Shown here piece after piece: positions 3,948-64,000 of a DNA stretch of 64,000 nt. A program made the position numbers and the translations under genes. The stretch comes from Oscillospiraceae bacterium (GTDB taxonomy: Bacteria; Bacillota; Clostridia; Oscillospirales; Oscillospiraceae). The notes under the pieces are model-generated. The model saw only the letters and a program-made list of their open reading frames with translations. It made no database searches and was not told the DNA's origin. Position 1 is the first letter of the stretch. Every line of letters starts with the position of its first letter. The stretch lies in NCBI GenBank assembly GCA_902767915.1, contig CACXJE010000004.1:22692-86691 (forward strand). Reading direction: 5' to 3'.

Positions 3948-4338
3948 CTGACAAGCAGCCTGATCAGAACCGTCCCTCAGACTCCCCAGACACCCCAGAA
4001 TCGCATTTGGCCTTGATCCATGTCACACAGAAAGATACAGGTGGTACAAGGATTGTTCGGCGAGCAGGTTAAGCTCGCCCCGAAAAAAGCGGCGTGTTAC
4101 GCTTCATAAGGCTACCATTGAAAACGACATTTCCTATCTGGGGGCGTTCACATACCAGCACTTCATTCCCGGCACTATTCCATCCTCCTGGCAGCCATGC
4201 TGGTGATCATCAGCTGCCTCGACCTTGTGCTGGGCAAGTGTTTCCCCGTGGAAAAGGCTGTCGGCTTCGGCGGGTCAACCAGTCTGATTTTCCTGGCACC
4301 GGTCGTCCTGCTGTTTTCTTATGGCAGATGTATCACAC

Positions 4339-7637: not shown

Positions 7638-7652
7638 CTCTTTTATCGTCAT
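7572..7652 (-). pseudogene. Relic 3' fragment of an M20 peptidase gene (26-codon ORF)
   Basis: Encodes MTIKEIESSCLPGAVDFYRNLICGLT*. The intact peptidase at 13415.. ends ..GLPGAVDFYQNLICGLT*. Confidence 0.7.
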
Positions 7653-7693
7653 GATCTGTTTCTCCACGATGTAATGGTTAATTATTTAAATGA

Positions 7694-9145
7694 TTATAAT
7701 GCAAACCCGAATCGGAACTTTCCGTTGACAGGATACTCTGCGGTTTTCCATGCCCGGTTAATCCTATCTATAACTTCAGGAGAAGCCCAAGCAATCTCGT
7801 CACATTGCTTGTAACCCAATTGGGATAGTTTTTCTGACAGCTCGGTCTCTCGTACGGATGGAAGCTGCAAGTAGGCCATTGCCCATTGAAACGCCCGCCG
7901 GGTGTATTCCTTTGAACTGCGGATGGCTCGGGCTACAGCCTCGCAATCCATATCATGTTCTTCCGGGTAAACCTGTCTGCCCTGTTCCATAAGATTGAAG
8001 ATCTTCTCACAGAGGTCTTCCGAGTGCCGGAATTTCACTTTTGCGAAGCATGGATCCAGGAACATGTCATAACTGAATCCCGTTTCTATCAAATACCCGT
8101 GCTGCGCTGCGCAGCGAAGAAACGGTTGATAGCCTATGGGCGTGATATTGGTAAAATGCGGGCTCTGCAGTTGGGCCGCATGGCTCAATTCACAGAGATC
8201 TGCAGGTGCAGAGAAGAGAATTCCGTATCTGGAATCCCCACCTCGCTTAGCTACCTCAGGCCGGGAATCTGCTGTGGAAAATTCATTGGCACGCAATGGA
8301 CGCCATTGCCCGGATTCCTTGTCAATGGTACAGCAGGCAAAAAACAGCGCAACCTTCAAATCTGAGGTGACGTCCAAGCCGTTTGTCGCAATCCCATAAT
8401 GTTGTGCGACAGCTCCATGAAACACGTCTCCCAAAGGCCATTGGTTGACACAATCCAGCTGCTTCAACCAGATGCTGAAATCACAGATCTTTGTTTCCGC
8501 GATCAAATCCTGGATTTCTGCTTTCTGAGGGTCCCTTGATCTTCCTCGGAATAAGGATGCAATGCTTCGGACATTGTAAGCATTTTCCCCTCGGTAATAG
8601 AATCTCGCATAACCCTGGGAGCAAATTCGGTGTCCGTTATACTCAAAAATCTGCCCATCGCGGATGCTGTCCATCATTCGATCCACAAGGAGCTCCAAAG
8701 GTTTCGGATTATCTCGAACGCAGCAGTACACCTCTTCCGCTTCTTCCTCAGAGGAAACGTAGAGATCCAGCAAGTGAGGGAACAGTGTGTCTACCCGATC
8801 AGTTTGCCCCGGAGCAATACCCATAATCCCAGCTACAACCTCATATTCGCTATGCGTCATCTTGCCTTGCGCCAACAACGCATCATACTGCTCCTGCGTC
8901 TTCTTTGCATAACGCTGGAACAGCTCATGCCGGTCCACACACTGCCAGAGCAGATCCTCCGTCAGCTCCGGAATCTGTTCGATGGAGTTAGCATAATGAC
9001 ATCCGGAATGATACTCATCGCTGTCAAAATGCCGCTCCAAATTATGCTTCGCTGAGCCCCGCTCTCCGTAAATCAGCTCCAGCGTGTCTGTCAAGGTTTG
9101 GTATCCGTTTCCACAGATAAACAGCCCGTTATTTGTATCTCTCAT
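7694..9145 (-). CDS. FRG-domain protein
   Basis: 483 aa. FYYRGENAYN..., AVAQHYGIATNGLDVTSDLKVALFFAC and LRCAAQHGY resemble the FRG domain core (YRGQ / QHYGxxTxxLDxT..ALFFA). Visibly more AT-rich than its neighbours. Confidence 0.6.
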   Translation of the reverse strand: MRDTNNGLFICGNGYQTLTDTLELIYGERGSAKHNLERHFDSDEYHSGCHYANSIEQIPELTEDLLWQCVDRHELFQRYAKKTQEQYDALLAQGKMTHSEYEVVAGIMGIAPGQTDRVDTLFPHLLDLYVSSEEEAEEVYCCVRDNPKPLELLVDRMMDSIRDGQIFEYNGHRICSQGYARFYYRGENAYNVRSIASLFRGRSRDPQKAEIQDLIAETKICDFSIWLKQLDCVNQWPLGDVFHGAVAQHYGIATNGLDVTSDLKVALFFACCTIDKESGQWRPLRANEFSTADSRPEVAKRGGDSRYGILFSAPADLCELSHAAQLQSPHFTNITPIGYQPFLRCAAQHGYLIETGFSYDMFLDPCFAKVKFRHSEDLCEKIFNLMEQGRQVYPEEHDMDCEAVARAIRSSKEYTRRAFQWAMAYLQLPSVRETELSEKLSQLGYKQCDEIAWASPEVIDRINRAWKTAEYPVNGKFRFGFAL

Positions 9146-9171
9146 TTCTTTATTTCATATAACTAATTGCT

Positions 9172-10728
9172 CTAAGGCTTTTTTTCTGATGACATACTAC
9201 CCTTTCGTTCAATCAAGCACTTTTTTGCGTCCTTCATGAAGCTCCAGATCATGATAATCATGATGATCCCGATTGGGAACGCAGAGATTATGCTGACCGA
9301 TTGGATGTTGCTCATGGAGCTTTCAGAGAAGACCAGACCTATGGGTAGAACAATCAACAGAATACACCAAAGGAATTGAATCAGCTTATGGGGATGTTCT
9401 TCCTCTCCAAGACGCTTATAGCTATAGCAGGCGGCAGTGTAGGCAATAGAATCAAAGGATGTAGCATAGAAAGCAATCATACAAAGGAGGGTTAGCACCA
9501 ATATGAATTTCTCTCCGGGCATCGTGTGGATGATGCTCAAAATCAGTCCATAGAGATCTCCGTTCGCTTCATACTCGGCAATAAAGTCTGCTGCACCGGA
9601 AGTCTGCAAGCCGAGAGAGTAGTTCCCCAACACAACAAAGCTGACAATTGTAGCACCAACGCCGAAGATATATCCGCCGAGAATCGTCTGCTTGATGGTT
9701 CTGCCCCGCGAAATGTTGCCAATAAAGAACGGCGCAGCGATACACCAAACCATCCAATAGGCCCAATAATATATCGTCCAATCCTGAGGGAAATTGTTGG
9801 TTCGCCCGGGATCTGCATATGTAGACAAGCCGAGGAAGTTCTGAATCATTTTGCCAAAGGATTGGAAACCGTTTTCAATGATAAATCTGCCCTGACCGCC
9901 GATCAGCAGAACAATCAGCAGAAGGCCAAAGAAGAGATAAATACACAGCTTTGCCAAAAAACTGATGCCTTTGAAGCCGTGTAGAACCGCATAGGTATAG
10001 ACGCCGCAGGTGATCAGCAGAATAATAATGGTAACTGCAGTTCTGCTGAGAGAAATATGGAAGAGATCCACCAGGATGCTTGCCATCAGCGGTGTAGCCA
10101 CAGAGAAGGTCGTTGCTGTCCCGGCCAGCAGGGCAAATAGTGCAAATAGGTCGATCACTCGACCCAGCAGGCCGTCAGCGTGCTTGCCGATCACCGGGCG
10201 GCAGGCTTCCGAGTACCGCTGGCGGTTGCGCTTGCGTACATGAAGCATAAAGCCAAAGGCCACAGCCAGCACCAGATAGAACGCCCAGGGGATAAAGCTC
10301 CAGTGAAACAGCGGGAAAACCCCAGCCCATTCCACAATGGAGCCGCCCATTTCCGCCAGGTGCGGGTTAGCTGCGTACATGACCCACTCCGCAAAGGAAT
10401 AGAACAGGATGTCTGCGGCCAGCCCGCAGGTGAACATCATGCTTCCCCAGGTGAAGAAGGAATACTTTGGCTTTTCATTGGGCTCGCCCAGTACGATGTT
10501 CCCATACTTGGACAAAGACAGGAACAGGGAAACCAACAACACACCCAGACCAATGATCAGATAATAGACGCCCATGGTGTCGCCTACAAAGAAGCGCACC
10601 TTTCCGATCACTCGGTTTGATTGTTCCGGTAAAAGAAAGAGCAACAACGCCAGACCGATAATCGTGATAAAGGGGACCAACGTTACTAGCCAGTCGACCC
10701 TTCCTTTGATTGCCTTATCCTTTTTCAT
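9172..10728 (-). CDS. BCCT-family (betaine/carnitine/choline) transporter
   Basis: Start trimmed to ATG 10728 (MKKDKAIKG...), removing a 140-aa extension that overlaps licC. BCCT signature region WTIYYWAYWMVWCIAAPFFIGNISRGRTIKQ; about 12 hydrophobic segments. Confidence 0.8.
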   Translation of the reverse strand: MKKDKAIKGRVDWLVTLVPFITIIGLALLLFLLPEQSNRVIGKVRFFVGDTMGVYYLIIGLGVLLVSLFLSLSKYGNIVLGEPNEKPKYSFFTWGSMMFTCGLAADILFYSFAEWVMYAANPHLAEMGGSIVEWAGVFPLFHWSFIPWAFYLVLAVAFGFMLHVRKRNRQRYSEACRPVIGKHADGLLGRVIDLFALFALLAGTATTFSVATPLMASILVDLFHISLSRTAVTIIILLITCGVYTYAVLHGFKGISFLAKLCIYLFFGLLLIVLLIGGQGRFIIENGFQSFGKMIQNFLGLSTYADPGRTNNFPQDWTIYYWAYWMVWCIAAPFFIGNISRGRTIKQTILGGYIFGVGATIVSFVVLGNYSLGLQTSGAADFIAEYEANGDLYGLILSIIHTMPGEKFILVLTLLCMIAFYATSFDSIAYTAACYSYKRLGEEEHPHKLIQFLWCILLIVLPIGLVFSESSMSNIQSVSIISAFPIGIIMIIMIWSFMKDAKKCLIERKGSMSSEKKP

Positions 10729-11461
10729 TGCATACAACCTCTTTTCCTGACTCCAACCAGGAGCTATACGACGGATCCTCCCGAACCAGTTCTTCCAGCG
10801 TGTCAATCTCCCGAATATCGGTTTCCGCCATAATCCGGATTCCCAACCGGTATTTCTCGGGATAACAGAACATCGCAACGTCATCCCAATAAATCTGACG
10901 ATTCTGCTTTTCCTGAAATTCGATTTCCAGATGTTTTTGCAGCTGCCTTCCATCCTCTGCCGTCCAACGGCTGATTGAGTAGAGCTGCCAGCCTCGACAA
11001 CCTCCCGTTCTGGAGCAGGAGCGGACGATTCCGTTTTCAACCTGCATGAGCCATTCACTCGTTTGTCCTTCGCACCAGACTGCATTGTAGCCGGAACGCT
11101 CAAAGGCTGGAGAAAGGATCTCCGGATTATAAATGATCTGGTCTCCATCCAGAATGATGCAGTCCTCCAGATGCCCCCGCGCTACATAGAGCGAACTGAT
11201 GTTGTTGCAGCTGTCAAACCAAGGATTCTCGACAAGCTGTACTCCGGGATACTCAGAGGGCAGTTCAGAAAACCGTTCCTTCAGATACCCCACCACAACA
11301 TAGATTTCGTTGATTCCATTCTGATGCAGGGCTTGAATTACAGTGTCGATCATGCGAATACCATTTACGGCAACCAGCGGCTTCGGGGTGGTAAGCGTGA
11401 TGGGCTTCATCCGCTCGCCTTTTCCGGCTGCAAGAATAATCGCTCGTTTCACCTGGTTCAT
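10715..11461 (-). CDS. licC: LicC-like nucleotidyltransferase (putative CTP:phosphocholine cytidylyltransferase)
   Basis: 248 aa. N-terminus AIILAAGKGERMKPITLTTPKPLV (GxGxR NTP-transferase motif). 4-nt overlap with the upstream kinase gene; adjacent to the BCCT transporter. Confidence 0.7.
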   Translation of the reverse strand: MNQVKRAIILAAGKGERMKPITLTTPKPLVAVNGIRMIDTVIQALHQNGINEIYVVVGYLKERFSELPSEYPGVQLVENPWFDSCNNISSLYVARGHLEDCIILDGDQIIYNPEILSPAFERSGYNAVWCEGQTSEWLMQVENGIVRSCSRTGGCRGWQLYSISRWTAEDGRQLQKHLEIEFQEKQNRQIYWDDVAMFCYPEKYRLGIRIMAETDIREIDTLEELVREDPSYSSWLESGKEVVCNEKG

Positions 11462-13233
11462 TTTACAGCCTCCGCTTTTTTCATTGCCTCCAAGGCATAT
11501 CGGTAAAAGTCCTTGGCATAACGGTACTGCCGCATACCGTACTCGCCAAACTCCACGCCCAGATTGCGCTTGTATTCAGTCCAATTGGACCAAAGCAGAC
11601 CGCAGGCAGCAATGTAGCAATAAATCTTAGCCCGCACTGCACGATCGCAGTTGCCTTCAAAATAGATATCGATCAAATGATCAATCTTTGGCTTGTCGTA
11701 CAGACTGTAGATGCAGAACATGGCAATGTCCACATGGGGATCCTGCATTCCGGCATATTCCCAGTCTGTCAACTGCAATCGCTCTTCTGCTGCCCCGTCA
11801 GGAGTATAGAACAAGAAGTTGTCCGGCACGGCGTCAATGTGAGTCAGACACCGCTCTATCGGTTGGTGATCGAGATAGTCACGCAGCGACAGCACATTTT
11901 GCTTGGTTTTTTCATAATCACGATAGGCGGAGGGCTGCCCGTTCCAAAGCCTTTCATAGAACTCTATTTGACCGAAAATATCGAAGCAGTGATCCACCTG
12001 TAGGCGCATTTCATGGAAATGCTTCAATAGGGTCATGCAGCGCCGCAAATCCGACGGATCCTCCGGGTCACAAACCCGGACGCCTTCCAGATACTTGGTG
12101 ATTTTATATCCATTTGCAGGATTAAGATATACTGGATCGTCACAGAGTCCTGCGCCGCAGATTGCCTGAAAGACAGCGGCCTCCTGCCTGCGGTTAATCA
12201 GTTTGTCGGTTCCCTCCCCTGGGATCCGCATGATATACTTTTTCCCCTTCACGCGGAAAAGGAACGAACGGTTTGTCATTCCTTTTTTCAGAATAGAAAT
12301 GTCTACTATATCTTCCGCCCTGCAATGAAGCGCATTGGAAATCACATCCAAGGCATCAGACTGAATACTACCGGAATTGCCGTCCAGTTCCCGCAACTGT
12401 TCAAAAGTGTTGATTTCCTTGACCAGATCTGCAGGGATTACCCTGGCGGGGATTGCCATTTTATTTTCACGGTCTAACGCGGCCTCCCAGAAGGCTCCAT
12501 CATAGTGGGGACTACTGTTCATCATTCGTAGTCTTGCTCGCAGATCGACGGCATTCTCTTCCAGAAGGTAGGATAAGCCAACCATCCGATTGCCTTCCTC
12601 TCCTTCATTTACCCTGACAAGCTCTTGCTTTCGATTAACTCGCACTTGGCTGCCGGGACCTTTCCGATCGGTCACCATGTACCACGAATAGAGCTCATAT
12701 TGGGAAAACGGGTTTTCAGCAAACCACAGATCTCCTGGAATGATATATGTATTCGAGATTTCCTCTGCTGCAATGGCGAGAGAGCAGAGGTTGTTTTTCT
12801 CGGCATAGGCAGGATTAACGACCAGCTTGACCCCAAACTCATCAATCAGATAGTCGAAGCGTTCCTTCATAAAGCCGACGACCACTGTGATTTTTTTAAC
12901 CCCCGCTTCCCAAAGCTGATGGATTATTCGTTCGATAAGCGTTTCTCCCCGCACCTCCAACAGCGCTTTGGGAGTCAGAGAATTGATCGGAATCATGCGC
13001 ATTCCAAGGCCGGCCGCTAGGATAATCGCATTCTGCGGCCTGCATTTCTCAAACAGCGCATGAGCCTTTTCCGTCAGCTGGCGTGCGTCAGAGAGTAAGC
13101 CCGCGTTGCTGAGCCTCCGAACAGATTGATTCACTGCACCAAGAGAATAACCTGTCTGATCAGCCAATGTGCGCTGATTTTGATAGCGACAAGTGGATAG
13201 AATTTGAAGGATAGTATAATCTTGAACGTTCAT
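11458..13233 (-). CDS. Tri-domain fusion: winged-helix HTH + NTP-transferase + choline/aminoglycoside-type kinase (LicA-like)
   Basis: 591 aa. N-terminus QRTLADQTGYSLGAVNQSVRRLSNAGLL (wHTH); AIILAAGLGMRMIPINSLTPKALL (NTP transferase); C-terminus LTHIDAVPDNFLF and LTDWEYAGMQDPHVDIA (APH/choline-kinase catalytic motifs). Confidence 0.75.
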   Translation of the reverse strand: MNVQDYTILQILSTCRYQNQRTLADQTGYSLGAVNQSVRRLSNAGLLSDARQLTEKAHALFEKCRPQNAIILAAGLGMRMIPINSLTPKALLEVRGETLIERIIHQLWEAGVKKITVVVGFMKERFDYLIDEFGVKLVVNPAYAEKNNLCSLAIAAEEISNTYIIPGDLWFAENPFSQYELYSWYMVTDRKGPGSQVRVNRKQELVRVNEGEEGNRMVGLSYLLEENAVDLRARLRMMNSSPHYDGAFWEAALDRENKMAIPARVIPADLVKEINTFEQLRELDGNSGSIQSDALDVISNALHCRAEDIVDISILKKGMTNRSFLFRVKGKKYIMRIPGEGTDKLINRRQEAAVFQAICGAGLCDDPVYLNPANGYKITKYLEGVRVCDPEDPSDLRRCMTLLKHFHEMRLQVDHCFDIFGQIEFYERLWNGQPSAYRDYEKTKQNVLSLRDYLDHQPIERCLTHIDAVPDNFLFYTPDGAAEERLQLTDWEYAGMQDPHVDIAMFCIYSLYDKPKIDHLIDIYFEGNCDRAVRAKIYCYIAACGLLWSNWTEYKRNLGVEFGEYGMRQYRYAKDFYRYALEAMKKAEAVK

Positions 13234-13327
13234 GAACTGCCCTTCTTTGCGATATTGTGAACATCGGAGTTATTATATCATTCCACCTCAAAAAGTCAAG
13301 CCAATTGTCTTCAGATGTTGAATAGAA

Positions 13328-13375
13328 CACAAATAAATCGGTGCGAGCTGCAAAGCAATGAGCTGCAGCTCGCAC
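13328..13375 (-). terminator. Rho-independent terminator after the M20 peptidase operon
   Basis: 11-bp stem GTGCGAGCTGC / GCAGCTCGCAC (13341-13375), followed on the minus strand by ATTTATTTGTGTT. Confidence 0.65.
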
Positions 13376-13408
13376 TGAATAGTGGCAATGACCTGGCAGG
13401 AATACGCT

Positions 13409-13480
13409 CTGCCCTCAGGTCAGGCCGCAGATCAGGTTCTGATAGAAATCCACCGCGCCGGGAAGACCGCTGTATTCGAT
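13409..13480. repeat. Direct repeat copy B (functional 3' end of the M20 peptidase gene)
   Basis: See copy A; includes the stop codon at 13415-13417. Confidence 0.85.
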
Positions 13481-14854
13481 GTTCTCGTTGACGCCGTGCA
13501 TGCCCTTCATCTGCTCAGGGCCGTAGATCACGGGCGCAAACCGGATCACGTTGTCGCAGATGGCCTGGTAGAAGCGGGCGTCGGTGGCGCCGGTCATCAC
13601 GTAGGGGCAGGCGGGCAGACCGGGGAAGGTCTGTTCCACGATCCGGGTCGCGTACTGCCAGCCCTCGCCGGAAATGTCCGTGGCTGCAGTGTAGTCGCTG
13701 GCGGCCCGAACCTCCGTCTCCAGGCCGTATTCCGCGGCCAGCGCCCGGATGATCCGCAGGCTCTCGTCCATGCCCTGATGGGGGATGAAGCGCAGATTGG
13801 CCCAGACAGCGGCCTCCTGGGGCAGGACGTTGCAGGCGTCGGAGCCGGACTGCATGGTAAAGGCAATCGTGGTTTTCAGCAGGGCGCTGGCCTGGGGGGA
13901 GAGCTTCGGCATCACGAGCTTCAAAAGGGGCCCGAACAGCCAGATATTCCCGAAGAGCAGCCGCAGGCCGAAGCCCGCATAGGGGGAAAGCCGGGTGAAC
14001 ATGGCCTTCACCTCGGGCTCGAATTGCTTCTTGAAGGGAGATCGCCGCTCCACCCGGTCTACAAACGCCGCCAAGCGGGCAATGGGGCTGTGGGCAGGGG
14101 GTGCGCTGGCGTGGCCGCCCTCGGAGCGGGCTGTGAATTTCACGTCGGCCTTGCCCTTCTCAAAGACGCCCATCATCGCGAAGTTCCCGGGGATCCCGGC
14201 GATGGGATCCGTGATGATGCCGCCGCCCTCGTCACAGACCAGCCAGGGCTTCACACCCCGGCGGGCCAGCTCGTCCACCAGCTTTTTGCAGCCGGGGCCG
14301 GCCCATTCCTCGGTGCAGGAGGAGGAGAGATACACGTCCTGCGGCGGGACGAAGCCCTGTGCCAGCAGCTCCTCCACCGCCTCAAAAAAGGCGAAGACGG
14401 AGCATTTCGTATCCGAGCTGCCCCGGCCCCAGACCTTGCCGCCCTCAATATCGCCGGAGAAGGGCTCGTGGCTCCACGCTCCTTCCGCCGGGACCACGTC
14501 CTGGTGGCTCATAAGGACGATGGGCTTTTCGCTGCGCTTGCCCTTCCAGTAAAAGAGCAGGTTCCCGTCCAGCTCCGTCTTTTCAAGATTGGCATGGACC
14601 AGGGGAAAAAGCTCCGCCAGCAGCTGATGAAAGCCAAGAAACTTCTCCCGCTGGTTTTCTCCGGGCACAGAGACGGTTTCATACCGCACCATGCGGGAGA
14701 GGGCCTGGGCGTAACGCTCCGCCCGGGCGGGGTCCGGGTCGGGCTGGTAGGTGGAAACCTTGTGCCCTGCCAGCAGGGTTCGCAGGACGGCGATGCCCAG
14801 CAGCAGCACGATCAGCCCCAGCAGACCCAGGAGCACATAGACGATCCACATCAT
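13415..14854 (-). CDS. M20/M25/M40-family metallopeptidase with N-terminal membrane anchor
   Basis: 479 aa. N-terminal TM (WIVYVLLGLLGLIVLLLGIAVL); motifs SHQDVVPA and GRGSSDTKCS; ATGA overlap with the upstream gene. Confidence 0.8.
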   Translation of the reverse strand: MMWIVYVLLGLLGLIVLLLGIAVLRTLLAGHKVSTYQPDPDPARAERYAQALSRMVRYETVSVPGENQREKFLGFHQLLAELFPLVHANLEKTELDGNLLFYWKGKRSEKPIVLMSHQDVVPAEGAWSHEPFSGDIEGGKVWGRGSSDTKCSVFAFFEAVEELLAQGFVPPQDVYLSSSCTEEWAGPGCKKLVDELARRGVKPWLVCDEGGGIITDPIAGIPGNFAMMGVFEKGKADVKFTARSEGGHASAPPAHSPIARLAAFVDRVERRSPFKKQFEPEVKAMFTRLSPYAGFGLRLLFGNIWLFGPLLKLVMPKLSPQASALLKTTIAFTMQSGSDACNVLPQEAAVWANLRFIPHQGMDESLRIIRALAAEYGLETEVRAASDYTAATDISGEGWQYATRIVEQTFPGLPACPYVMTGATDARFYQAICDNVIRFAPVIYGPEQMKGMHGVNENIEYSGLPGAVDFYQNLICGLT

Positions 14855-54528: not shown

Positions 54529-54603
54529 TGGAGGTGATGGGCAGATTTGAACTGCCGAATGACGGTTTTGCAGACCGTTGCCTTACCACTTGGCTACATC
54601 ACC
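54529..54603 (-). tRNA. tRNA-Cys (anticodon GCA), CCA encoded
   Basis: Minus strand: GGTGATGTAGCCAAGTGGTAAGGCAACGGTCTGCAAAACCGTCATTCGGCAGTTCAAATCTGCCCATCACCTCCA. Acceptor stem GGTGATG/CATCACC, anticodon loop CT-GCA-AA, T-loop GTTCAAATC. Confidence 0.9.
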
Positions 54604-54744: not shown

Positions 54745-55989
54745 ATGGCTAATAAAAGGAGAGAAAAAGGAGCCGGAAGCATCCGAAAAATTGGAGCCAA
54801 ATATTATGGTCGGCTAATGATTGATGGAGTTACAAAAAATTTTGTTGGAGATTCCGCCGCCGATGTGCGGCGGCAGATGCGTGAGTATGACCCAGAACGA
54901 GAGGAAAAGGAAAGAAATAATCCACTTGTTACTGACTACATGCAGTCATGGCTGACGACATATAAAAAACCATCCCTGCGCCCATCCAGCTATGACCGCA
55001 TAGAATGTACTGCTACTTATCAGATATTACCTTATTACAAGGGGGTGAGGCTATCAGACCTTACGCCGGAAACAATATCACAATGGATGCAGAGGCTACA
55101 AGCAGAGGGATTGAGTTACAGCAGTATCAAAAAAGCCTATGTTGCCTTAAATGCAGCACTTGACCAAGCTCTTCTTTCCGGCCTTCTCTCTCGGAGCCCC
55201 ATGGCGGGGCTCTCCATGATCTCCCCGGATCACTTCACGCCATCAGATATTAGATATTTAAGCAAATCCGAAATACAGTTGTTTCATAGTTATTTAACTA
55301 CACAGTGTAGTGAAATGACTAACAACCCCGAAAAGAACACTTCAAATTGTAGTGATTTAACTACAAAACCACAGGAAAGAAAGAAAAAAGAAGAAATTTG
55401 TAGTTATTTCACTAACAGCTATTGGTATGCCCCGGCTCTGATCCTTGACCTGCACACCGGTCTGCGCGGCGGAGAGCTCGCAGCGCTGCAGGTATCGGAC
55501 TATGACGCGGAGGCTCACACACTCCATGTACGCCAAACAGCCCGGAAGTTCCGCACCAGGGATCAATCCGGTGCTCTGCAGCAGGGGATCACAGTGCAGT
55601 ATGGGCGGCCTAAAACCCGCGCCGGCACCCGTATCGTGCCTTGTGACACCATCGCGCAGCAGGCAGTGCAGGAGCTCATTCGGCGGGCTAAGGCAGCCCG
55701 GAGCCCCTTCCTGGTCGTCAGCAAGGCAGGAACGCCCACAACCATCACACTCCTGGAGCACGCGGCGGAGAGGATATACAAGCGCATTGGAGCAGAGGGT
55801 GCAACGCTCCACTCCCTCCGCCACACTTTTGCTAGTCAGCTTTTTGCCGCCGGGGTTGACGTCCTCACAATCAGCAGGACCCTGGGCCACGCCTCCACCG
55901 CCATCACGATGCAGGTATATGTACATATGACGCAAGAGAGCCAAGCGGCGGCAGCCGCCAAAATTGAGGAGGCATTGAGCTCTATATAA
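54745..55989 (+). CDS. int: Tyrosine recombinase / phage integrase
   Basis: Start trimmed to ATG 54745 (AAAGGAGCAAAAA upstream). Catalytic region HTGLRGGEL...HSLRHTFASQLFAAGVDVLTISRTLGHASTAITMQVYVH. Confidence 0.85.
   Translation: MANKRREKGAGSIRKIGAKYYGRLMIDGVTKNFVGDSAADVRRQMREYDPEREEKERNNPLVTDYMQSWLTTYKKPSLRPSSYDRIECTATYQILPYYKGVRLSDLTPETISQWMQRLQAEGLSYSSIKKAYVALNAALDQALLSGLLSRSPMAGLSMISPDHFTPSDIRYLSKSEIQLFHSYLTTQCSEMTNNPEKNTSNCSDLTTKPQERKKKEEICSYFTNSYWYAPALILDLHTGLRGGELAALQVSDYDAEAHTLHVRQTARKFRTRDQSGALQQGITVQYGRPKTRAGTRIVPCDTIAQQAVQELIRRAKAARSPFLVVSKAGTPTTITLLEHAAERIYKRIGAEGATLHSLRHTFASQLFAAGVDVLTISRTLGHASTAITMQVYVHMTQESQAAAAAKIEEALSSI
55286..55416. repeat. Four copies of an ~18-nt palindromic unit TGTAGT-N6-ACTA(C/A)A inside the int ORF
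   Basis: Units at ~55286-55302, 55306-55324, 55348-55365 (perfect palindrome TGTAGTGATTTAACTACA) and 55398-55416. AT-rich and in frame. Confidence 0.75.
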
Positions 55990-56472: not shown

Positions 56473-57060
56473 TCACATATCAAATTTTGTTATCACGCTT
56501 TTTATTACGCCTAGAATAGTATATGACGGATCTTCTTTTTCGCCATTTTTTGCAAAAATCTCTGGGACGCCATCAGATTTTGGATAGAGAAGTTCGATTC
56601 CGGGAAGTCTGATGTACTTCCTGATGGTTCTATTACTAGTCACGACCCAGCATACTTCAGGCAACGCAATCCACTCATCTTCAGCTGATATGGAACTTTG
56701 TAGGAGGACAACATCCCCTTTTTTCAACTTGAGTTCAGGTACTCCATCCTCTTCTTCGATTTGCCAAGCTAGATCCGCTTTCCATTTTTCAGGGAGGGTG
56801 TACGGGTTGCTATACTGATCGATCACCGTTGCCATTTTGCTAGCAGGAGCTTTAGCAAGCGGTGGATCCAGCGGTTCCATGCCAAGTAGTTGTCCCGCTG
56901 TCACGCCAAAATGATCACATAGCTTCTGAATATGCTTTTCACTCAGCGGCCGAAGTCCACGATCATATGCGCTCCAGTTCGGTACATTAGAGTCAAAAAG
57001 ATCTGCGATGTCCTGAATTTTTTCTCCATGCCGCTTTCGCAGTTCTTTCAAGTTATTCAT
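56473..57060 (-). CDS. CI/LexA-like repressor (XRE HTH + C-terminal beta-barrel domain)
   Basis: 195 aa. N-terminus LKELRKRHGEKIQDIADLF...LSEKHIQKLCDHFGVTAGQLLG (XRE HTH). C-terminus KKGDVVLLQ...TIRKYIRL resembles the S24 fold, but no GDSM-type Ser motif is seen. Divergent from the early operon. Confidence 0.7.
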   Translation of the reverse strand: MNNLKELRKRHGEKIQDIADLFDSNVPNWSAYDRGLRPLSEKHIQKLCDHFGVTAGQLLGMEPLDPPLAKAPASKMATVIDQYSNPYTLPEKWKADLAWQIEEEDGVPELKLKKGDVVLLQSSISAEDEWIALPEVCWVVTSNRTIRKYIRLPGIELLYPKSDGVPEIFAKNGEKEDPSYTILGVIKSVITKFDM

Positions 57061-57180: not shown

Positions 57181-57302
57181 CGGCTCTGTGGAGCCGGAGC
57201 GCCGCTTTTGCGTCACTCACCGCCCTACCATCACCCCCTTGCGGCTTGGCCCCCTCTTCCTCCCCTGCGCTGTGAGGACGATGGGGCTGCCGCCCTTTTT
57301 TG
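57181..57302 (+). ncRNA. Candidate small RNA or structured element (GC-rich island with intrinsic terminator)
   Basis: GC-rich ~115 nt inside an AT-rich spacer. Possible -10 TACAAT at 57168-57173. Terminal hairpin GCGGCTTGGCCCC...GGGGCTGCCGC (57241-57293) followed by TTTTTTG. Contains the pyrimidine tract CCCTCTTCCTCCCC. Confidence 0.35.
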
Positions 57303-57406
57303 TATGCAAAACTCGATTTTATGTATAAATAATCGAGTTTAAGGCTAAAAAGCCGATTTTAACCGATTATTATGAATAAATACCCGGTTTTAAGATTTTC
57401 TTATGC

Positions 57407-57458
57407 AAAAGTTTGACGATATTGTCAAAGTGTTTGATCCCTAAGAAGTCAAACTTTT
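57407..57458. promoter_or_regulatory. Operator-like inverted repeats in the repressor/early-gene switch region
   Basis: AAAAGTTTGAC (57407-57417) and GTCAAACTTTT (57448-57458) are perfect inverted repeats, with a third half-site GTCAAAG at 57424-57430. Further palindromes lie at 57470-57520 (TTCTGGGCC-TATATATA-GCCCCAGAA; CGATTCTAGAATCG). Confidence 0.5.
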
Positions 57459-57815
57459 TGTTTTCCGGTGGGTTCTGGGCCTATATATAGCCCCAGAAGA
57501 GGTCGATTCTAGAATCGGGTTTTCCGAGTTTTGATGCCTCATTCCAGAAGCAAATTCTATCTCTAAAACCGCGTTTACAAATAGTTTACATTTAAATATC
57601 CAAAATTTGGCAGAAAACGACATGTTTTTAATCTTATTTTTTTACTTCTCTTACATAATAAAATATAATAATTAGTTCAGTTTTTCAAAGAAAAATCTCT
57701 TATATAAGAATTTTAATTTTTTCAGTTTTACTTACATAATAAGTCGTGATAATCATTTCAGATATAATTTTGGTCGCCACCGGACCACAAGCGGGTGGAA
57801 CGGAAGGAAAGAATT

Positions 57816-58376
57816 ATGAGTATAAAAGATTATGATTACAAGAAAATCACGGAAGAAGTGAAGAAGTCCATCAAAGATGCAGTTATTGATTGTGCTGTTA
57901 TATTATTTGTCGACGCTCCATATATCCAGGATGAATACGCAATATGCCTCTATCTTATGAACGATATGCGCATTTATCATGTCTTTTTGTCCGACGAGGA
58001 AATAACTGATTCTACTGTTGTTGTATATGAAAACTTGTCCAATGCATGTAATGGCTATGATGAAATTACAAAATTTATCGCTGAAGAGTACATGCATAGT
58101 GGCCTTTCCTGCGGTCATTTCCTGCAGGATTATCTAGATCAGGCGATAGATGACATTGACGACTATATCAAGGCGATTGATACACATCCGGAGTATGCAG
58201 ACTTCCTTCGGAAGACCATTAGATTCTGTTTTGACCATAACAGGGTGGAGATTGACTATAGCAGGATTGATCAGGTCGTGAATTTCATCATCGATGAGCG
58301 CCGTAAGATGAATAAAGATATCATCTTGGATGGTGCTCCAAAAGGATCAGGAGGGATAGAATCATGGGAGCGTTGA
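57816..58376 (+). CDS. Hypothetical early protein
   Basis: Start moved to ATG 57816 (GGAAGGAAAG upstream) from the GTG at 57795; 186 aa, no motif recognised. Confidence 0.5.
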   Translation: MSIKDYDYKKITEEVKKSIKDAVIDCAVILFVDAPYIQDEYAICLYLMNDMRIYHVFLSDEEITDSTVVVYENLSNACNGYDEITKFIAEEYMHSGLSCGHFLQDYLDQAIDDIDDYIKAIDTHPEYADFLRKTIRFCFDHNRVEIDYSRIDQVVNFIIDERRKMNKDIILDGAPKGSGGIESWER

Positions 58377-58699
58377 AACAACTATTGATTGAGGCCGAAG
58401 AGTATGATCCCTATGATGAGTTAGATCTGATCACAAAGTCCCTAGAAATCTGGGACGATAGAATTGGATGGGTACCGTATGTTCCGAACGATATTCCCGA
58501 CGATTACGACGACGAGGACTTAGCGCATCCTACAATAAACAAGCTACAGAATGAGGCATCAATCATTTTATCCAACTTGAGCCACTCTGAAGGCTACGAG
58601 GAAGAGTCAGAAGGCAATGGAACTGACCTTCTAACTTCAGAACAACTAAAAAAGTTGGACGAACTGCTTAGCGAGGTTGAAAGCATGGGGGGCAGATGA
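58364..58699 (+). CDS. Highly acidic small protein
   Basis: 111 aa, very rich in D/E (e.g. DDYDDEDL, EGYEEESEG); overlaps neighbouring genes at both ends. Confidence 0.5.
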   Translation: MGALKQLLIEAEEYDPYDELDLITKSLEIWDDRIGWVPYVPNDIPDDYDDEDLAHPTINKLQNEASIILSNLSHSEGYEEESEGNGTDLLTSEQLKKLDELLSEVESMGGR

Positions 58700-58764
58700 C
58701 AGCCCCTCACCAAAGGAAGATTATCCTGAGCATAACAAAGCAAAATCTTAGAGGAGGATGCACT

Positions 58765-59394
58765 ATGGAACTAATCAAAAATTTAAATGCTCAGCCTGGA
58801 AGCCCGATGTGCAGACGTACATATGCTCTGCTCAGTTCTGAGATCCGAAAGCTGACGCAATCAGCTGATGCTGAAATTACTATGGGCTACATTGTGTCCA
58901 AGCTGCTATATAGCTTGGATGAAGCTACATGTAGCCGAGAGCCTAAGCACCACACTATGTACAAGGGTCGTCCGTTTTTTCGATGCAACGAAAAATTTAT
59001 CGCAGAGCAGTTAGGGTACAGTACCCGACAGGCGTCGATTGTCTTACAGAAACTACGTGATGGATATGGGCTGATCGAAGAACACCCCGAAGTCAACTAT
59101 GAGCTCTTTTTACAGTGCCACGCAGACCGTACACACTGCATGACAATCACTGATGAGGGCCTTAGTTATTACCCTGAACTCCAGATCGAAATCGACACAT
59201 GGAATCGTAATCACCCGAACGGTTTTTGGTTTGGGCCTCCCAAGCGAAAAAAGCGGAAAAGGGTTGAGCAAAAGCCTGCTACAAAGCAGGAACCCTCTCA
59301 GGAGCCAAAAACTCATGAGCCGGTTCCAGTAGAGAGCTACGATATGGGCGAATCAAAAGAAAACAAAAAACATTATGCCCCAAATCTCGACTAA
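58765..59394 (+). CDS. Winged-helix DNA-binding protein with Lys-rich tail (possible replication organiser)
   Basis: Start trimmed to ATG 58765 (GAGGAGG at 58751-58757). FIAEQLGYSTRQASIVLQKLRDGYGLIE is wHTH-like; PKRKKRKRVEQK basic tail. Confidence 0.5.
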   Translation: MELIKNLNAQPGSPMCRRTYALLSSEIRKLTQSADAEITMGYIVSKLLYSLDEATCSREPKHHTMYKGRPFFRCNEKFIAEQLGYSTRQASIVLQKLRDGYGLIEEHPEVNYELFLQCHADRTHCMTITDEGLSYYPELQIEIDTWNRNHPNGFWFGPPKRKKRKRVEQKPATKQEPSQEPKTHEPVPVESYDMGESKENKKHYAPNLD

Positions 59395-59457
59395 CTACAT
59401 AAGCCTCTGGTGGGAATCCGCCTGGGGGAAACAAAAATCAAACTACAGGAGGATCAA

Positions 59458-59682
59458 ATGAATTACAACAAAAAACTGAATGAAGACAAGAAGAAGCAAA
59501 AAGAGCTTCAGCTCGACGCCATCAGACTGATCACAGCCGATATCATCATCGACTGCTACGTCGGTGGACTGTCAAAGGACCTCATACTCAAAATCACCGA
59601 TATCTGCTTCGCCGAAGCAGAACGAATTGCAGCAGAAAAGAATCCCGCAGCAAACCACTGCAACGGGGATGAGGAGGGCTGA
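59458..59682 (+). CDS. Hypothetical small protein
   Basis: Start trimmed to ATG 59458 (AGGAGGATCAA upstream); 74 aa. Confidence 0.45.
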   Translation: MNYNKKLNEDKKKQKELQLDAIRLITADIIIDCYVGGLSKDLILKITDICFAEAERIAAEKNPAANHCNGDEEG

Positions 59683-59685
59683 GCA

Positions 59686-59850
59686 ATGATGGATCTTCAG
59701 GAGCTTCACGCATTGTTCGTTGAAATTGTTGTCGGCGCCGCAGCTATGGTCGCGCTGAAGCTTATGACGACAGATGAATATGACGAATTTATGACTGATA
59801 TAGAGCCTGACGTGAAAATGCTATTAGAAGCCATGCGCGCCGGTGCTTAA
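59686..59850 (+). CDS. Unlisted 54-aa ORF, hypothetical
   Basis: ATG 59686 preceded by GAGGAGGG (59671-59678). MMDLQELHALFVEIVVGAAAMVALKLMTTDEYDEF...; fills the gap between tracked ORFs. Confidence 0.4.
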   Translation: MMDLQELHALFVEIVVGAAAMVALKLMTTDEYDEFMTDIEPDVKMLLEAMRAGA

Positions 59851-59875
59851 CACTACAAAAAGGAGGACAAACCAT

Positions 59876-60232
59876 ATGACTTATCCACATACACAAAAAG
59901 AGATCAAGCGTGCGCTGAAAGACCTCCACACCACCCGCTTCTCGCTGGACTCCCTTCGAAATCAGCGCCGCTACTGCAATCCCGAAGATGTTGCAGACAT
60001 ATCAGACCGCATCGCAAAAACCGCTGCCTTCGTGGGAATAATGGATGATGCCATCGCGCACATTCCCCCACGGGATCAGGAAGTGCTAAAAATTTGCATG
60101 GAGATTAACGGGCCATGGCAATCAACCCTAGCTGATGCACTAAAGGTTTCGCAGTCTACAGCATGTCACCGTCTTCATAGCGCCCTTCGTTCCATGCAAA
60201 TTGCGCTCACCGGGGAGGCCGAAAATGAGTAA
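59876..60232 (+). CDS. ArpU-like / sigma-70 region-4-like phage late transcriptional regulator
   Basis: Start trimmed to ATG 59876 (AGGAGGACAAACCAT upstream). C-terminus PPRDQEVLKICMEINGPWQSTLADALKVSQSTACHRLHSALRSMQ is region-4 HTH-like. Confidence 0.55.
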   Translation: MTYPHTQKEIKRALKDLHTTRFSLDSLRNQRRYCNPEDVADISDRIAKTAAFVGIMDDAIAHIPPRDQEVLKICMEINGPWQSTLADALKVSQSTACHRLHSALRSMQIALTGEAENE

Positions 60233-60234
60233 TC

Positions 60235-60528
60235 TTGAGGGAATCTCCGCTGCAAAAAGCCGCTTGTTGGGACAAGTATCCGTGCCAAGAATGCATGCGC
60301 AATGGGCGCTTTACGCCTGTCACTAAGATGCACCGTACCGCACATGACACCGTAAAGAAGCTTGTATGGGTTCTAGACAACCTTCGCTCCGTCTGCCGCG
60401 CCTGTCATAACTTCGAACAACCGGATGAAGTAGCAAGTAGGCCGAAACTCCGGTATTATGGCACCCTTATGGATGACAGTTCAGCTTTGACCAAGCCCCG
60501 GAAAGCCCGGGGCTTGAATGAGAGCTGA
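60235..60528 (+). CDS. HNH-endonuclease-like protein
   Basis: 97 aa (TTG start in track; start uncertain). CQEC...H..AH...N..SVCRACHN arrangement. Confidence 0.55.
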   Translation: MRESPLQKAACWDKYPCQECMRNGRFTPVTKMHRTAHDTVKKLVWVLDNLRSVCRACHNFEQPDEVASRPKLRYYGTLMDDSSALTKPRKARGLNES

Positions 60529-61027
60529 ACTCTCAAAAAGAAATATTATGGAGGTTTTATCAGTGGAAAAATTATGGGACTTAAGCAAATTGGATGTACG
60601 TGAACGGGCAGCTCTTCGGAAAAGCATTGGTCAGCCGTTCGGAACCGACGCTGGTGCGATGATAGCGTTTTTTAAGGCGCTTTGTACTGAACCCGGCGAA
60701 AAAAACAAAGACATTCTTTTTAAATGTATGTGTCTGGAGTGTCTATGGAGGCCCGGCGAAACAAAGGGACGGCCAAAGATGCTTCAAGAAATACTACATG
60801 ATATGATTAAAGCTGGTGATGTCATAGCAACGAGACGGTTTTTTTACATGCTAGATATCAGCAGCACCAACAATCTGCTATACCAATTGGAAAAATGCGT
60901 CCGCCTTATCAAAGTGCGTTATCCGAGACAAGCAGTTGACTTTCAGGCGTTAGTAAGGGATCTTCTGCAGTGGGGGGATCCCGACCTAAAGAAATCATGG
61001 ATTAATAGTATTTTCTGTGAAACTTGA
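60518..61027 (+). CDS. Cse2/CasB-like protein (type I-E Cascade small-subunit homologue), orphan
   Basis: 169 aa. RERAALRKSIGQPFGTDAGAMIAFF..., ..ATRRFFYMLD..LLYQLEKCVRLIK....AVDFQALVRDLLQWGDPDLKKSWINSIF parallels the recalled Cse2 pattern (aALRR..; vErRF..LL; vDw..L..DL..W.....v...Wa..Fy) and hand-aligns to E. coli and T. thermophilus Cse2 C-termini from memory. Confidence 0.55.
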   Translation: MRAELSKRNIMEVLSVEKLWDLSKLDVRERAALRKSIGQPFGTDAGAMIAFFKALCTEPGEKNKDILFKCMCLECLWRPGETKGRPKMLQEILHDMIKAGDVIATRRFFYMLDISSTNNLLYQLEKCVRLIKVRYPRQAVDFQALVRDLLQWGDPDLKKSWINSIFCET

Positions 61028-61115
61028 TACAGCCCCGGGTATTGTCCCTAGAATGCAATGATGGAGTACTTTTTTGTATACTTATATAATAGAAATAATA
61101 GTATATCGATAACAG

Positions 61116-61146
61116 AAAGAGAAGGCGTTAAAACCTTCTCTTTTTC
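61116..61146 (+). terminator. Rho-independent terminator closing the plus-strand operon
   Basis: AGAGAAGG cgttaaaa CCTTCTCT followed by TTTTT. Confidence 0.75.
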
Positions 61147-61156
61147 GTGCTGTGAA

Positions 61157-61229
61157 ACTGAACAGAGTGCAGTTTTGAAAAAGCGGCTTACTGAACAGAG
61201 TTTAGAAGATCGCTGAACAGAGTTCAGTA
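61157..61229. repeat. Three copies of a 17-bp site ACTGAACAGAGT(T/G)(C/T)AG(T/A)
   Basis: Copies at 61157-61173, 61190-61206 and 61213-61229. The third is a perfect palindrome, CTGAAC-AGA-GTTCAG. Confidence 0.7.
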
Positions 61230-61897
61230 CTATAACAGCACCGAGTTCGGCGCTGGAACCGAACGGAATGCGATCACTATACCATATAGTATATATATTG
61301 GAGAAAAATGTTCCGTAGCTCCTGCTGGTGACGATCAATATAATCATCATGGGAACTTTTTGTTAAATGCACAGTGGATGGCGTATTCCAAAAATCTCGC
61401 AAAAAGTGCTTTAGTAACCATGATGGCAGGGGCCGGCGGAGGAACGACAAGATTACTGCAAACATGTGGTTTTTAATTTGAGTAGTTCCGTAGCTTCAAT
61501 TAATTTATCTGGAGAAGGCGCGCCCCAAGCAGGATAGTGGATGGAGCTGGTCCCTCGCGGCTGGTGGCTGGTGCGTGATCGGTGGATTTTTGGCGCGGCG
61601 GTCACATGGGTCTGTATCGGAAATACTGGACTTTTGGCCCATTGCCCTGGACATTGTGTATCTGCTGGTACGCAAGCAGGAGCGGCATAGTGGTACGATG
61701 GATGTAATTCAAAGATTTTGGGGATTAAAAAGAGATATAGATTGATAATAATGAAACAGAAGATATAGTGTGCAAAGAAGTCAATCCTCTTTCTTCCTTT
61801 TGATATTCCAATACCTTTTTCTATTGGAGGATTATTACTATAGGTGTATACTAGAGGTTTTGACATAGTATACCATATGTCATATCCACTCCATGAT

Positions 61898-62640: not shown

Positions 62641-62796
62641 TTATGTGGTCTGCTCCCAAGCACGTAGATCTGTTTTGAAAATTTTCTTTGATTGATCATT
62701 TCTAATGCTGTAATTCTCATACTGCTGAAAACTTGTTCTGGAATCACTTGCAGCAACAATCCCATGATCGCTACGCATCATAAGCACTAAGCTCAT
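62641..62796 (-). pseudogene. N-terminal fragment of a proteasome/Ntn-hydrolase-like gene
   Basis: ATG 62796 with ACGGAGGAAC upstream. MSLVLMMRSDHGIVAASDSRTSF... resembles the N-terminus of T1/Ntn proteases but stops after 51 aa. Downstream frames contain only short open stretches. Confidence 0.4.
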
Positions 62797-62977
62797 TTTT
62801 GTTCCTCCGTTGATATCAGTATAGGTTTTTTCTGTCTTTTGCGATTGGTTCAACGCTGTTTGTCTTGCCATTTCTATCTCCATAAAATAATACCATGCCC
62901 TTTTGTTAATTTCAATTTTTTATTATGTAAGAAATAGAGAGACCCGCAGCCTAATGGCTGCGGGTCAATGTTTATTT

Positions 62978-64000
62978 TCAATAATACTCAATCAAGCCAC
63001 ATCGAGAACACTGACGATATGCGGGCTTGTCGATAATCTCTTCATCATAGTTTCTATAGCCGGCATGAGCATTTTGTTCATCAGTAAAAAGATAAGCATC
63101 TTGATGAGCACATAATTCCTCGTAAGTCCAGAAAACTGCGCCACAGTAGCATTCGACACCATGCAACCAATGGGTTTCTGCATCATGGTGTACCCAAGAA
63201 TGACCAAGCGCTTCACCAACAGTTTCTTGGCTTGTAGCACCGCAACGAGAACACTTATAATTTACAGTGAACGGAGCAGTGCAGGTAGCCTGCGTAAAAC
63301 CGGCTTCCTGATAATCATGGCCGAGGGCAGCAGTCTGGGTCCTCTGGGTGTCACCGCATCTGGTGCACTTCTTCTCTACATAGCCGCCGCTGGTGCAAGT
63401 AGCGGTTCCATTACTTGTTACCTTGTAGTCATGACCAAGTGCATTGGTCTGATTGCGCTTTTCCGAAGCACCGCAACGGCTGCACTTATATTCGGTGTAA
63501 CCGCCGGCAGAGCAGGTGGCTGCTACGGTGTTGCCCTTAGTCCAATTGTGACCAAGCGCATTCTTGTAGTTATCTTTATAAGAATCGCCGCAGCTGCACT
63601 TATACTCAGTATAGCCCTTATTGGTACAGGTAGGAGCTACTACGGTTGCCTTGTAACTATGTGCATGAGGAGGATTCGTAGGAGCAGGAGGATCCGTGGG
63701 CTTGGGATTGGTGGGTTGAGGACTGGTCGACTCAGTCGGTGATGTGGGATTCGTTGGTTCCGGATCGTCGGGCTGAGTTGGCTGAACCGAATCAGTCGGC
63801 TTGGTAGTATGCTCAGACGCAGGTTCAGTTACCTCCTCGTTGCTGCCGTCATGTTCCGTGCCGACAACATCTGTATTCTCAATTGGATCCGTATGAGCAG
63901 GCTCTGTTACGTCATCCACAAACGTTACATCGGGCGTGGTAATACTCGGTACGGTATTGGTTGAGCCGGTTGACTGACCATTGTGGTTATTCATGGTACT
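62978..64000 (-). CDS. Cys-repeat (zinc-ribbon-like repeat) protein with Pro/Thr/Glu-rich linker; N-terminus may lie beyond the window
   Basis: Four ~40-aa repeats of ..(A)TC(T/S)xxGY.EYKCSRCG......ALGH(D/N/S)(Y/W). Preceded by PTQPDDPEPTNPTSPTESTSPQPTNPKPTDPPAPTNPP. No signal peptide after the ATG at 63994, so the ORF may extend upstream. Confidence 0.65.
   Translation of the reverse strand, partial: STMNNHNGQSTGSTNTVPSITTPDVTFVDDVTEPAHTDPIENTDVVGTEHDGSNEEVTEPASEHTTKPTDSVQPTQPDDPEPTNPTSPTESTSPQPTNPKPTDPPAPTNPPHAHSYKATVVAPTCTNKGYTEYKCSCGDSYKDNYKNALGHNWTKGNTVAATCSAGGYTEYKCSRCGASEKRNQTNALGHDYKVTSNGTATCTSGGYVEKKCTRCGDTQRTQTAALGHDYQEAGFTQATCTAPFTVNYKCSRCGATSQETVGEALGHSWVHHDAETHWLHGVECYCGAVFWTYEELCAHQDAYLFTDEQNAHAGYRNYDEEIIDKPAYRQCSRCGLIEYY

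Follow-up and report, generated by a model that had tools for sequence, protein, structure and literature searches.

An orphan Cse2 homologue on a rumen clostridial integrative element as a candidate Cas-derived anti-CRISPR

Why would a gene for the small subunit of a type I-E Cascade stand by itself on a mobile element? The question is raised by a 64-kb stretch of DNA from an Oscillospiraceae bacterium (contig CACXJE010000004.1, positions 22,692 to 86,691), the whole of which is called the window below. The gene encodes a homologue of Cse2, also known as CasB or Cas11e. As the original prediction had stated, it is the last gene of a plus-strand operon (57795-61027) and directly follows a gene for an HNH endonuclease. 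We describe the identity and origin of this gene, the element that carries it, and the possible roles of its product, among which that of an anti-CRISPR is tentatively preferred.

A solitary Cse2 homologue and its origin

The longest open reading frame (ORF) of the gene spans positions 60518 to 61027 of the plus strand and encodes 169 aa from the alternative start ATG 60518. It contains all the motifs that had been ascribed to it, namely RAALRKS, RRFFYML, and AVDFQALVRDLLQWGDPDLKKSWINSIF. The best start, however, is likely GTG 60563, which gives a protein of 154 aa. This codon is preferred because a GGAGG site precedes it by 8 nt, because the N-termini of homologues align there, and because the gene call of P0001, a metagenome protein with 99% identity, begins at the equivalent site. 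The interval 60235-61027, to which the gene had been assigned, does hold it, but also includes the separate HNH gene (60235-60528). The Cse2 ORF is full length and has its own ribosome-binding site and terminator.

The likeness to the Cse2 profile is borne out by searches with family models. Both curated models are matched above their cut-offs: Pfam PF09485 with 39.1 bits (gathering cut-off 24.6, profile positions 1-133 of 137) and NCBIfam TIGR02548 casB_cse2 with 29.5 bits (cut-off 28.5). Five Cas11e models of PADLOC match as well, the best with 47.8 bits and an E value of 6e-13. According to phmmer against 1.8 billion cluster representatives, the protein has 66 matches, and every one that was looked up is Cse2.

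As for the structure, single-sequence AlphaFold prediction gave an unusable model with a predicted local distance difference test (pLDDT) score of 44, and an alignment of homologues was therefore used. With this alignment of 59 sequences AlphaFold2 reaches a pLDDT of 96.4 and a predicted template modelling (pTM) score of 0.90. In a Foldseek search of the PDB the top 12 chains are all Cse2/CasB, with template modelling (TM) scores of 0.61-0.71; they belong to T. thermophilus, M. ruber, T. fusca, and a type I-E HNH Cascade (PDB 8yb6). No significant match besides Cse2/CasB chains was reported in this search. The predicted protein is all-helical and superposes on Cse2 with a TM score of up to 0.71.

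The family core residues are kept (L18, G23, F36, C57, C60, W62, D98, D126, L130, D133, W137, and W146). At subfamily-conserved positions the protein deviates by W101S, K108Q, Q143K, and deletion of the DG loop, and it is devoid of the acidic C-terminal tail of its close relatives. Judged by profiles and predicted fold together, the last plus-strand gene is a true Cse2/CasB/Cas11e homologue, and the resemblance is far beyond chance.

The gene is also solitary, as had been claimed. No other type I-E cas gene was found in the 64-kb window by tblastn with Cas3, Cse1, Cas7, Cas5, and Cas6e of a complete type I-E operon (locus L004), and neither Tandem Repeats Finder nor a spaced-repeat search revealed a CRISPR array there. 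Both negatives are limited to the window, whose end lies 3 kb from the gene; no cas gene is present in the 6 kb upstream and the 3 kb downstream of it, and a 3-kb metagenome contig (L001) has none either. The neighbours of the gene are the HNH gene and non-coding DNA, not cse1 or cas7, and the remaining 54 kb of the window is a locus related to polysaccharides and choline.

Regarding its origin, the closest relative beyond near-identical copies is P0002 (42% identity), whose gene belongs to the complete cas3-cse1-cse2-cas7-cas5-cas6e operon of L004. The genes of four further relatives (P0003, P0005, P0006, and P0054) adjoin cse1 and/or cas7, and in every type I-E operon looked up cse2 stands directly between these two genes. 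The neighbour-joining tree places the orphan beside P0002 as its sister and gives it a branch of ordinary length. Operon-encoded sister, relatives beside cse1 and cas7, and unremarkable branch all indicate that the orphan is an escaped cas-operon gene and not a convergent helical bundle. The known copies are four, that of the window and those of three near-identical contigs. GTDB species representatives yielded no further copy or relative of the orphan gene, and the sole match in the Joint Genome Institute (JGI) metagenomes, L014, was judged a false positive. Among the operons looked up, L081 (6479-10945) is a Cascade-only type I-E operon, cse1-cse2-cas7-cas5-cas6e, with no cas3, cas1, or cas2 within 8 kb on either side; genes with CTD7, MC3, and LmuB_C domains follow it.

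A second orphan lineage is represented by P0056 (L012, 2287-2982) and P0073 (L080, 513-1253), in which an N-terminal helix-turn-helix (HTH) domain of the HTH_3 family is fused to a Cse2 domain. The two proteins are 45% identical to each other, are both encoded outside cas loci, and form a separate clade in the neighbour-joining tree. The gene neighbours of P0056 match phage families of unknown function (phrog_29409 and phrog_29248). On the evidence of domain content, gene context, and tree position, orphan Cse2 arose independently at least once more, in the form of these HTH_3-Cse2 fusions.

The mobile element and its cargo slot

The original prediction placed the gene on a mobile element, and this is supported by an integrase gene, a gene for a cI-like repressor, and a guanine-cytosine (GC) content of 44% compared with 57% for the host DNA. 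The orphan gene itself, with 43.7%, has the GC content of the element. Related elements, called sister elements here, are found on metagenome contigs, and homologues of the sigma-like protein encoded upstream of the HNH gene are 64-72% identical in L005-L010. In L008 the integrase is the same (77% identical), and genes for a repressor, the sigma-like protein, and HNH are present as well. The last two also occur in L009; L005 and L006 contain those for the integrase and the sigma-like protein. No Cse2 was detected by hmmsearch in the sister elements L005, L006, L008, and L009.

The blastn homology between the window and L008 ends at 60529. Just before this point lies a GC-rich stem-loop, which together with the motif AATGAG(A/G)GCTGAA is kept right after the HNH gene in L008 (~6430-6470) and L009 (~4255-4295). 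Beyond the hairpin each element has its own AGGAGG site (a TTTAGGAGG-type ribosome-binding site), followed by a gene that differs between them. The window has Cse2 there, L008 encodes an unrelated 19x-aa protein that L005 and L009 also have, and L009 encodes an 87-aa protein. The 19x-aa protein was considered as a hidden relative of Cse2 and rejected on the basis of hmmsearch, an hhalign probability of 0.15, and the absence of a PDB match. Because homology stops at the hairpin and is followed by unrelated genes in the sister elements, comparison of these sequences identifies Cse2 as swapped-in cargo at a defined slot and not as a core life-cycle gene. The stem-loop itself could serve as a cos-like site or a site of processing, or could mark a recombination boundary.

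The HNH gene on the near side of this boundary is apparently decaying. In alignments with L008, L009, and L010, a 17-nt frameshifting deletion follows the ancestral ATG, so that TTG is the only in-frame start left; in addition, the HH pair at the probable catalytic histidine has become HR and the C-terminal 25 residues are divergent. A functional HNH-Cse2 pair is unlikely, since the HNH gene is partly decayed and is kept in sister elements without Cse2.

Table 1. Features of the element and its surroundings, in window coordinates
Feature	Position	Strand	Basis or remark
tRNA-Cys beside the left end of the element	54529..54603	-	ARAGORN; Rfam tRNA 70.6 bits
Tyrosine integrase, 414 aa from ATG 54745	54745..55989	+	Phage_integrase 77.4 bits; 77% identical to L008 integrase
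cI-like HTH repressor	56473..57060	-	PHROG repressor families, HTH_26; 38% identical to L008 repressor
Conserved non-coding block	57181..57523		~75% identity to L005, L006, L008, L009
Promoter-like site TTTACT-17-TATAAT ahead of the operon	57641..57669	+	Consensus match only
Upstream operon genes (193, 111, 232, 90, 54 aa)	57795..59850	+	ORF list; no Pfam or PHROG assignment
Sigma-70 region-4-like regulator, 118 aa from ATG 59876	59876..60232	+	Sigma70_r4 21.9 bits, TIGR02937 25 bits
HNH endonuclease gene, 97 aa	60235..60528	+	Pfam HNH 24.6 bits; PHROG HNH families
GC-rich stem-loop AAGCCCCGG/CCGGGGCTT and motif GAATGAGAGCTGAA	60493..60529	+	Alignment with L008 and L009
Ribosome-binding site GGAGG	60550..60554	+	8 nt before GTG 60563; sequence
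Orphan Cse2/CasB/Cas11e-like gene	60563..61027	+	154 aa from GTG 60563; profile models, AlphaFold2, Foldseek
Terminator-like hairpin followed by a T-run, ends the operon	61114..61147	+	RNA fold of 61020-61160 and sequence
Three palindromic CTGAACAGAGTTCAG-type 15-mer repeats	61158..61227	+	Pattern search
Second conserved non-coding block, no called gene	61587..61818		blastn 68% identity, L005 (11065-11298) and L006

Coordinates of these and the other features are collected in Table 1. Between the repressor gene and the operon lies a conserved block (57181-57523) with about six YCGATTTTA iteron-like repeats, a TTTGAC..GTCAAA palindrome, and a GC hairpin with a T-run; by these features it may serve as a replication origin or as an operator region. 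Rfam reports the tRNA only and no match for this block. Among the upstream operon genes, the product of 58696-59394 (232 aa) is related by blastp to putative winged-helix/replication proteins of the sister elements (L009 1452-2228, L005 8668-9285, and L008 3822-4367). Some of the sister proteins (L009 1452-2228, L005 8668-9285, and L005 14954-15451) end in DGLPF or DDDLPF, which resembles the acidic C-terminal tip of SSB, whereas the homologue in the window has no such tip. The final genes of the operon are those for the sigma-70 region-4-like regulator, HNH, and Cse2. The first of these had been named ArpU, a label that does not hold: the protein is only sigma-70 region-4-like, and both matches fall below their cut-offs.

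Downstream, the terminator-like hairpin lies ~90 nt past the stop codon of the orphan gene. The CTGAACAGAGTTCAG pattern has 6 matches in the window compared with 1.3 expected, and three close copies occur only at 61158-61227; by their palindromic form these repeats look like operators, that is, sites for a dimeric DNA-binding protein. The backbone of the element extends past the Cse2 gene, since the block at 61587-61818, downstream of the cargo slot, is common to L005 and L006. Neither direct-repeat nor exact-word searches revealed att repeats between the integrase side and 61-64 kb, and the right end of the element, which is undefined, may lie beyond the window end. A comparison of the element DNA with phages gave no match.

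Several variations were observed around the element. A metagenome variant, L002, is without 58826-60114, a stretch of 1.3 kb that begins within the 232-aa gene and ends within the sigma-like gene, and has an intact Cse2 gene; the loss is either a real deletion or an assembly artefact. Synteny with L001 (2379) breaks at 62789, in the middle of an 80-aa minus-strand ORF (62641-62883), a mosaic junction with no obvious att site. A secreted protein with repeated Cys-rich motifs is encoded at 62978-63994 on the minus strand of the window and, with 55% identity, at 13372-14340 on the plus strand of L005. Its orientation relative to the element backbone is inverted; possible explanations are cargo common to both, a segment that can invert, and a coincidence in the flanking DNA. 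The host is an uncultured rumen bacterium of the Clostridiales/Oscillospiraceae, and its DNA has ~96% nucleotide identity to a contig of the rumen Clostridiales RUG104 (L015), from which 5.8 kb of the window (7638-13407, with genes for an FRG-domain protein, a BCCT transporter, and a LicC/choline-kinase-like protein) is missing; this segment is a strain-variable insertion.

Possible roles of the orphan subunit

The orphan is a Cas-subunit homologue encoded on a mobile element outside any cas locus. By analogy with the Cas-like inhibitors discussed in the last section, it may be a Cas-derived anti-CRISPR that acts as a faulty Cascade small subunit; we hold this reading tentatively, as one that falls somewhat short of probable. 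According to it, Cas11e would have left a type I-E cas operon for the gene pool of mobile elements, and would be transcribed last in a repressor-controlled operon, on induction or on entry into a repressor-free cell. With its Cse2 fold retained, the protein would take one or both of the small-subunit places in the belly of a recipient's Cascade, the recipient presumably having a cognate type I-E system. A Cascade built in this way would fail at stabilising or locking the R-loop, or at licensing Cas3. Such a dominant-negative effect would shield both the element and any helper phage from spacers directed against the element.

The second orphan lineage offers circumstantial support for the anti-CRISPR reading. 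An anti-CRISPR fused to an Aca-like HTH domain is a known self-regulating architecture, as in AcrIIA1 and AcrIF24, and the HTH_3-Cse2 proteins may be comparable.

Several points weigh against an anti-CRISPR role. No neighbour was recognised as acr or aca by Pfam, PHROG, and PADLOC, which are general and not Acr-specific libraries. The orphan gene is the last of its operon and not a promoter-proximal early gene, and the ordinary length of its branch gives no sign of unusual divergence. The 2 nt that differ across the four copies are too little for a ratio of nonsynonymous to synonymous substitution rates (dN/dS) or another measurement of selection. No homologue of the orphan was found in IMG/VR, GenBank phages, or PLSDB plasmids; for IMG/VR the orphan protein, a two-sequence profile, and P0056 were all used as queries and came back empty. 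The deviations at subfamily-conserved positions are not clearly disabling, and in the case of the DG loop this is because functional Thermus Cse2 also does without it. Finally, in one study E. coli Cas11 was dispensable for plasmid interference (PMC12235044), which means that a decoy would have to poison the complex and that inertness would not be enough. The same study speaks of Cas11 as a protein to which no function has been definitively assigned (PMC12235044).

Among the alternatives, the best surviving is that the gene is a functionless passenger, a cas fragment brought in by illegitimate recombination and drifting to loss in a decaying element. The visible decay of the adjoining HNH gene and the L002 variant, with 1.3 kb of the operon gone, fit this explanation, as does the scarcity of copies, which leaves purifying selection not demonstrable. 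In contrast, the reading frame is full length with its own ribosome-binding site and terminator, all fold-core residues are kept in a confidently modelled protein (AlphaFold2 pLDDT 96), no cas fragments flank the gene, and L002 still has Cse2 intact. The gene also seems to have resided long in the mobile pool without acquiring stops, given its 42% identity to the nearest operon copy and a GC content equal to that of the element. Overall, a mere passenger is unlikely.

The helical bundle may instead have been exapted for a function unrelated to CRISPR in the life cycle of the element, for example binding of single-stranded DNA or R-loops in replication, or an accessory or small-terminase-like part in packaging beside a cos-like site. 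Within Cascade, Cse2 proteins bind nucleic acid; moreover, phage HNH genes are followed by cos and terS, and here a conserved hairpin follows the HNH gene. The packaging variant had been put forward in the original prediction, but it finds no backing in the data. The resemblance to phage TerS at the HNH-cos-terS position is confined to the place after an HNH gene and a similar size, while sequence and structure differ: no terminase family of Pfam or PHROG is matched, and in the viral structure library BFVD the orphan has no match, terminase entries reaching a TM score of ~0.2 with E > 2. A small-terminase identity was rejected on these grounds. Furthermore, the slot is variable among the sister elements, where its genes are unrelated and the 19x-aa protein is not Cse2 (hhalign 0.15), so the slot holds no conserved life-cycle function; the HNH gene itself, by its sequence, looks inactive. 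We therefore regard exaptation as distinctly unlikely.

Another explanation is that the orphan modulates or hijacks Cascade. It might do so with the help of cas genes situated on the element past the window end, or might turn a host Cascade into a complex capable of binding only, to be exploited by the element. In favour of this, only 3 kb of the window follow the gene, the right end of the element was not found, and Cascade-only type I-E operons without cas3, cas1, and cas2 do exist (L081). However, the invariable position of cse2 between cse1 and cas7 in the operons looked up, and the cas-free DNA on both sides of the gene and on L001, make this explanation improbable. A bolder version of the idea has a similarly slim chance: Cas11e would be captured repeatedly, solo or as an HTH-Cse2 fusion, and would reprogramme the host Cascade so that Cas3 licensing is blocked and binding stays intact, leaving host spacers to silence competing phages or the helper, to the advantage of the element; alternatively, the captured bundle would be exapted for a non-CRISPR DNA transaction.

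A two-gene effector in which the small subunit would bring the HNH nuclease to Cascade is hardly credible and largely refuted by the comparative data, because, in spite of the adjacency of the genes and the existence of HNH-bearing type I-E Cascades (PDB 8yb6), a conserved module boundary separates the two, sister elements keep HNH without Cse2, and the HNH gene has suffered a frameshifting deletion and lost its probable catalytic histidine.

Comparison with known systems

In comparison with Cse2 of type I-E operons (PF09485, TIGR02548; PDB 2zca, 4h7a, 3wa8, and 5u07), the orphan belongs to the same family and has the same helical fold (TM 0.6-0.71) and length. It differs in context, lying outside a cas operon, on an integrative element, and with no cse1, cas7, or array.

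With AcrIE1-AcrIE10 the orphan shares the presumed type I-E target and the location on a mobile element. To our knowledge, these are small proteins without homology to Cas proteins, whereas the orphan is a full-length Cas11e homologue. Several AcrIE proteins are described as acting on Cascade subunits, with AcrIE9 and AcrIE10, for example, binding Cas7.

The closest parallel is provided by AcrIB3 and AcrIB4 of Listeria. The former has 38% identity to Cas5 and the latter 38% identity to the last 90 residues of Cas8b. Carried by mobile elements, both are built into a type I-B Cascade, which then ceases to engage DNA, while overexpressed genuine Cas subunits do not inhibit (Katz et al., bioRxiv 10.1101/2023.06.24.545427). 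In type I-B the small subunit consists of the C-terminal part of Cas8b and arises by internal translation (McBride et al.), and AcrIB4 may on this account effectively be a small-subunit mimic. The orphan resembles this pair in being a Cas homologue outside a cas locus, on a mobile element and at a similar distance from its counterpart (42% vs 38% identity), and the mode proposed for it, defective Cascade assembly, would also be alike. The differences are that AcrIB3 and AcrIB4 concern type I-B in Listeria and the orphan type I-E in rumen Clostridia, that no acr or aca gene was recognised beside the orphan, and that its activity is only predicted.

The subunit-mimic role had been thought undescribed, but it was already published for type I-B (Katz et al., bioRxiv 10.1101/2023.06.24.545427). 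The mimic idea is thus not new as a concept, and by this analogy it is a plausible and reasonable candidate for the orphan. Among the 358 orphan viral cas genes of Katz et al. (bioRxiv 10.1101/2023.06.24.545427), type I-E cas3, cas8e, and cse1 are included, and cse2 is not. Text searches of the literature found no report of orphan Cse2 as an anti-CRISPR, and a Cas11e-derived candidate appears to be a new example. The analysis also points to a practical way of finding anti-defence cargo slots in small integrative elements that lack annotation, in uncultured Clostridia of gut and rumen.

If active, the protein would stand as the first anti-CRISPR to have arisen from the small subunit of type I-E, and would serve as a genetically encoded tool for asking what part Cas11e has in R-loop locking and Cas3 licensing. 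Given two independent orphan lineages, the small subunit would be a recurrent entry point for sabotage, and the 'faulty subunit' strategy known from type I-B would be extended to the best-studied Cascade.

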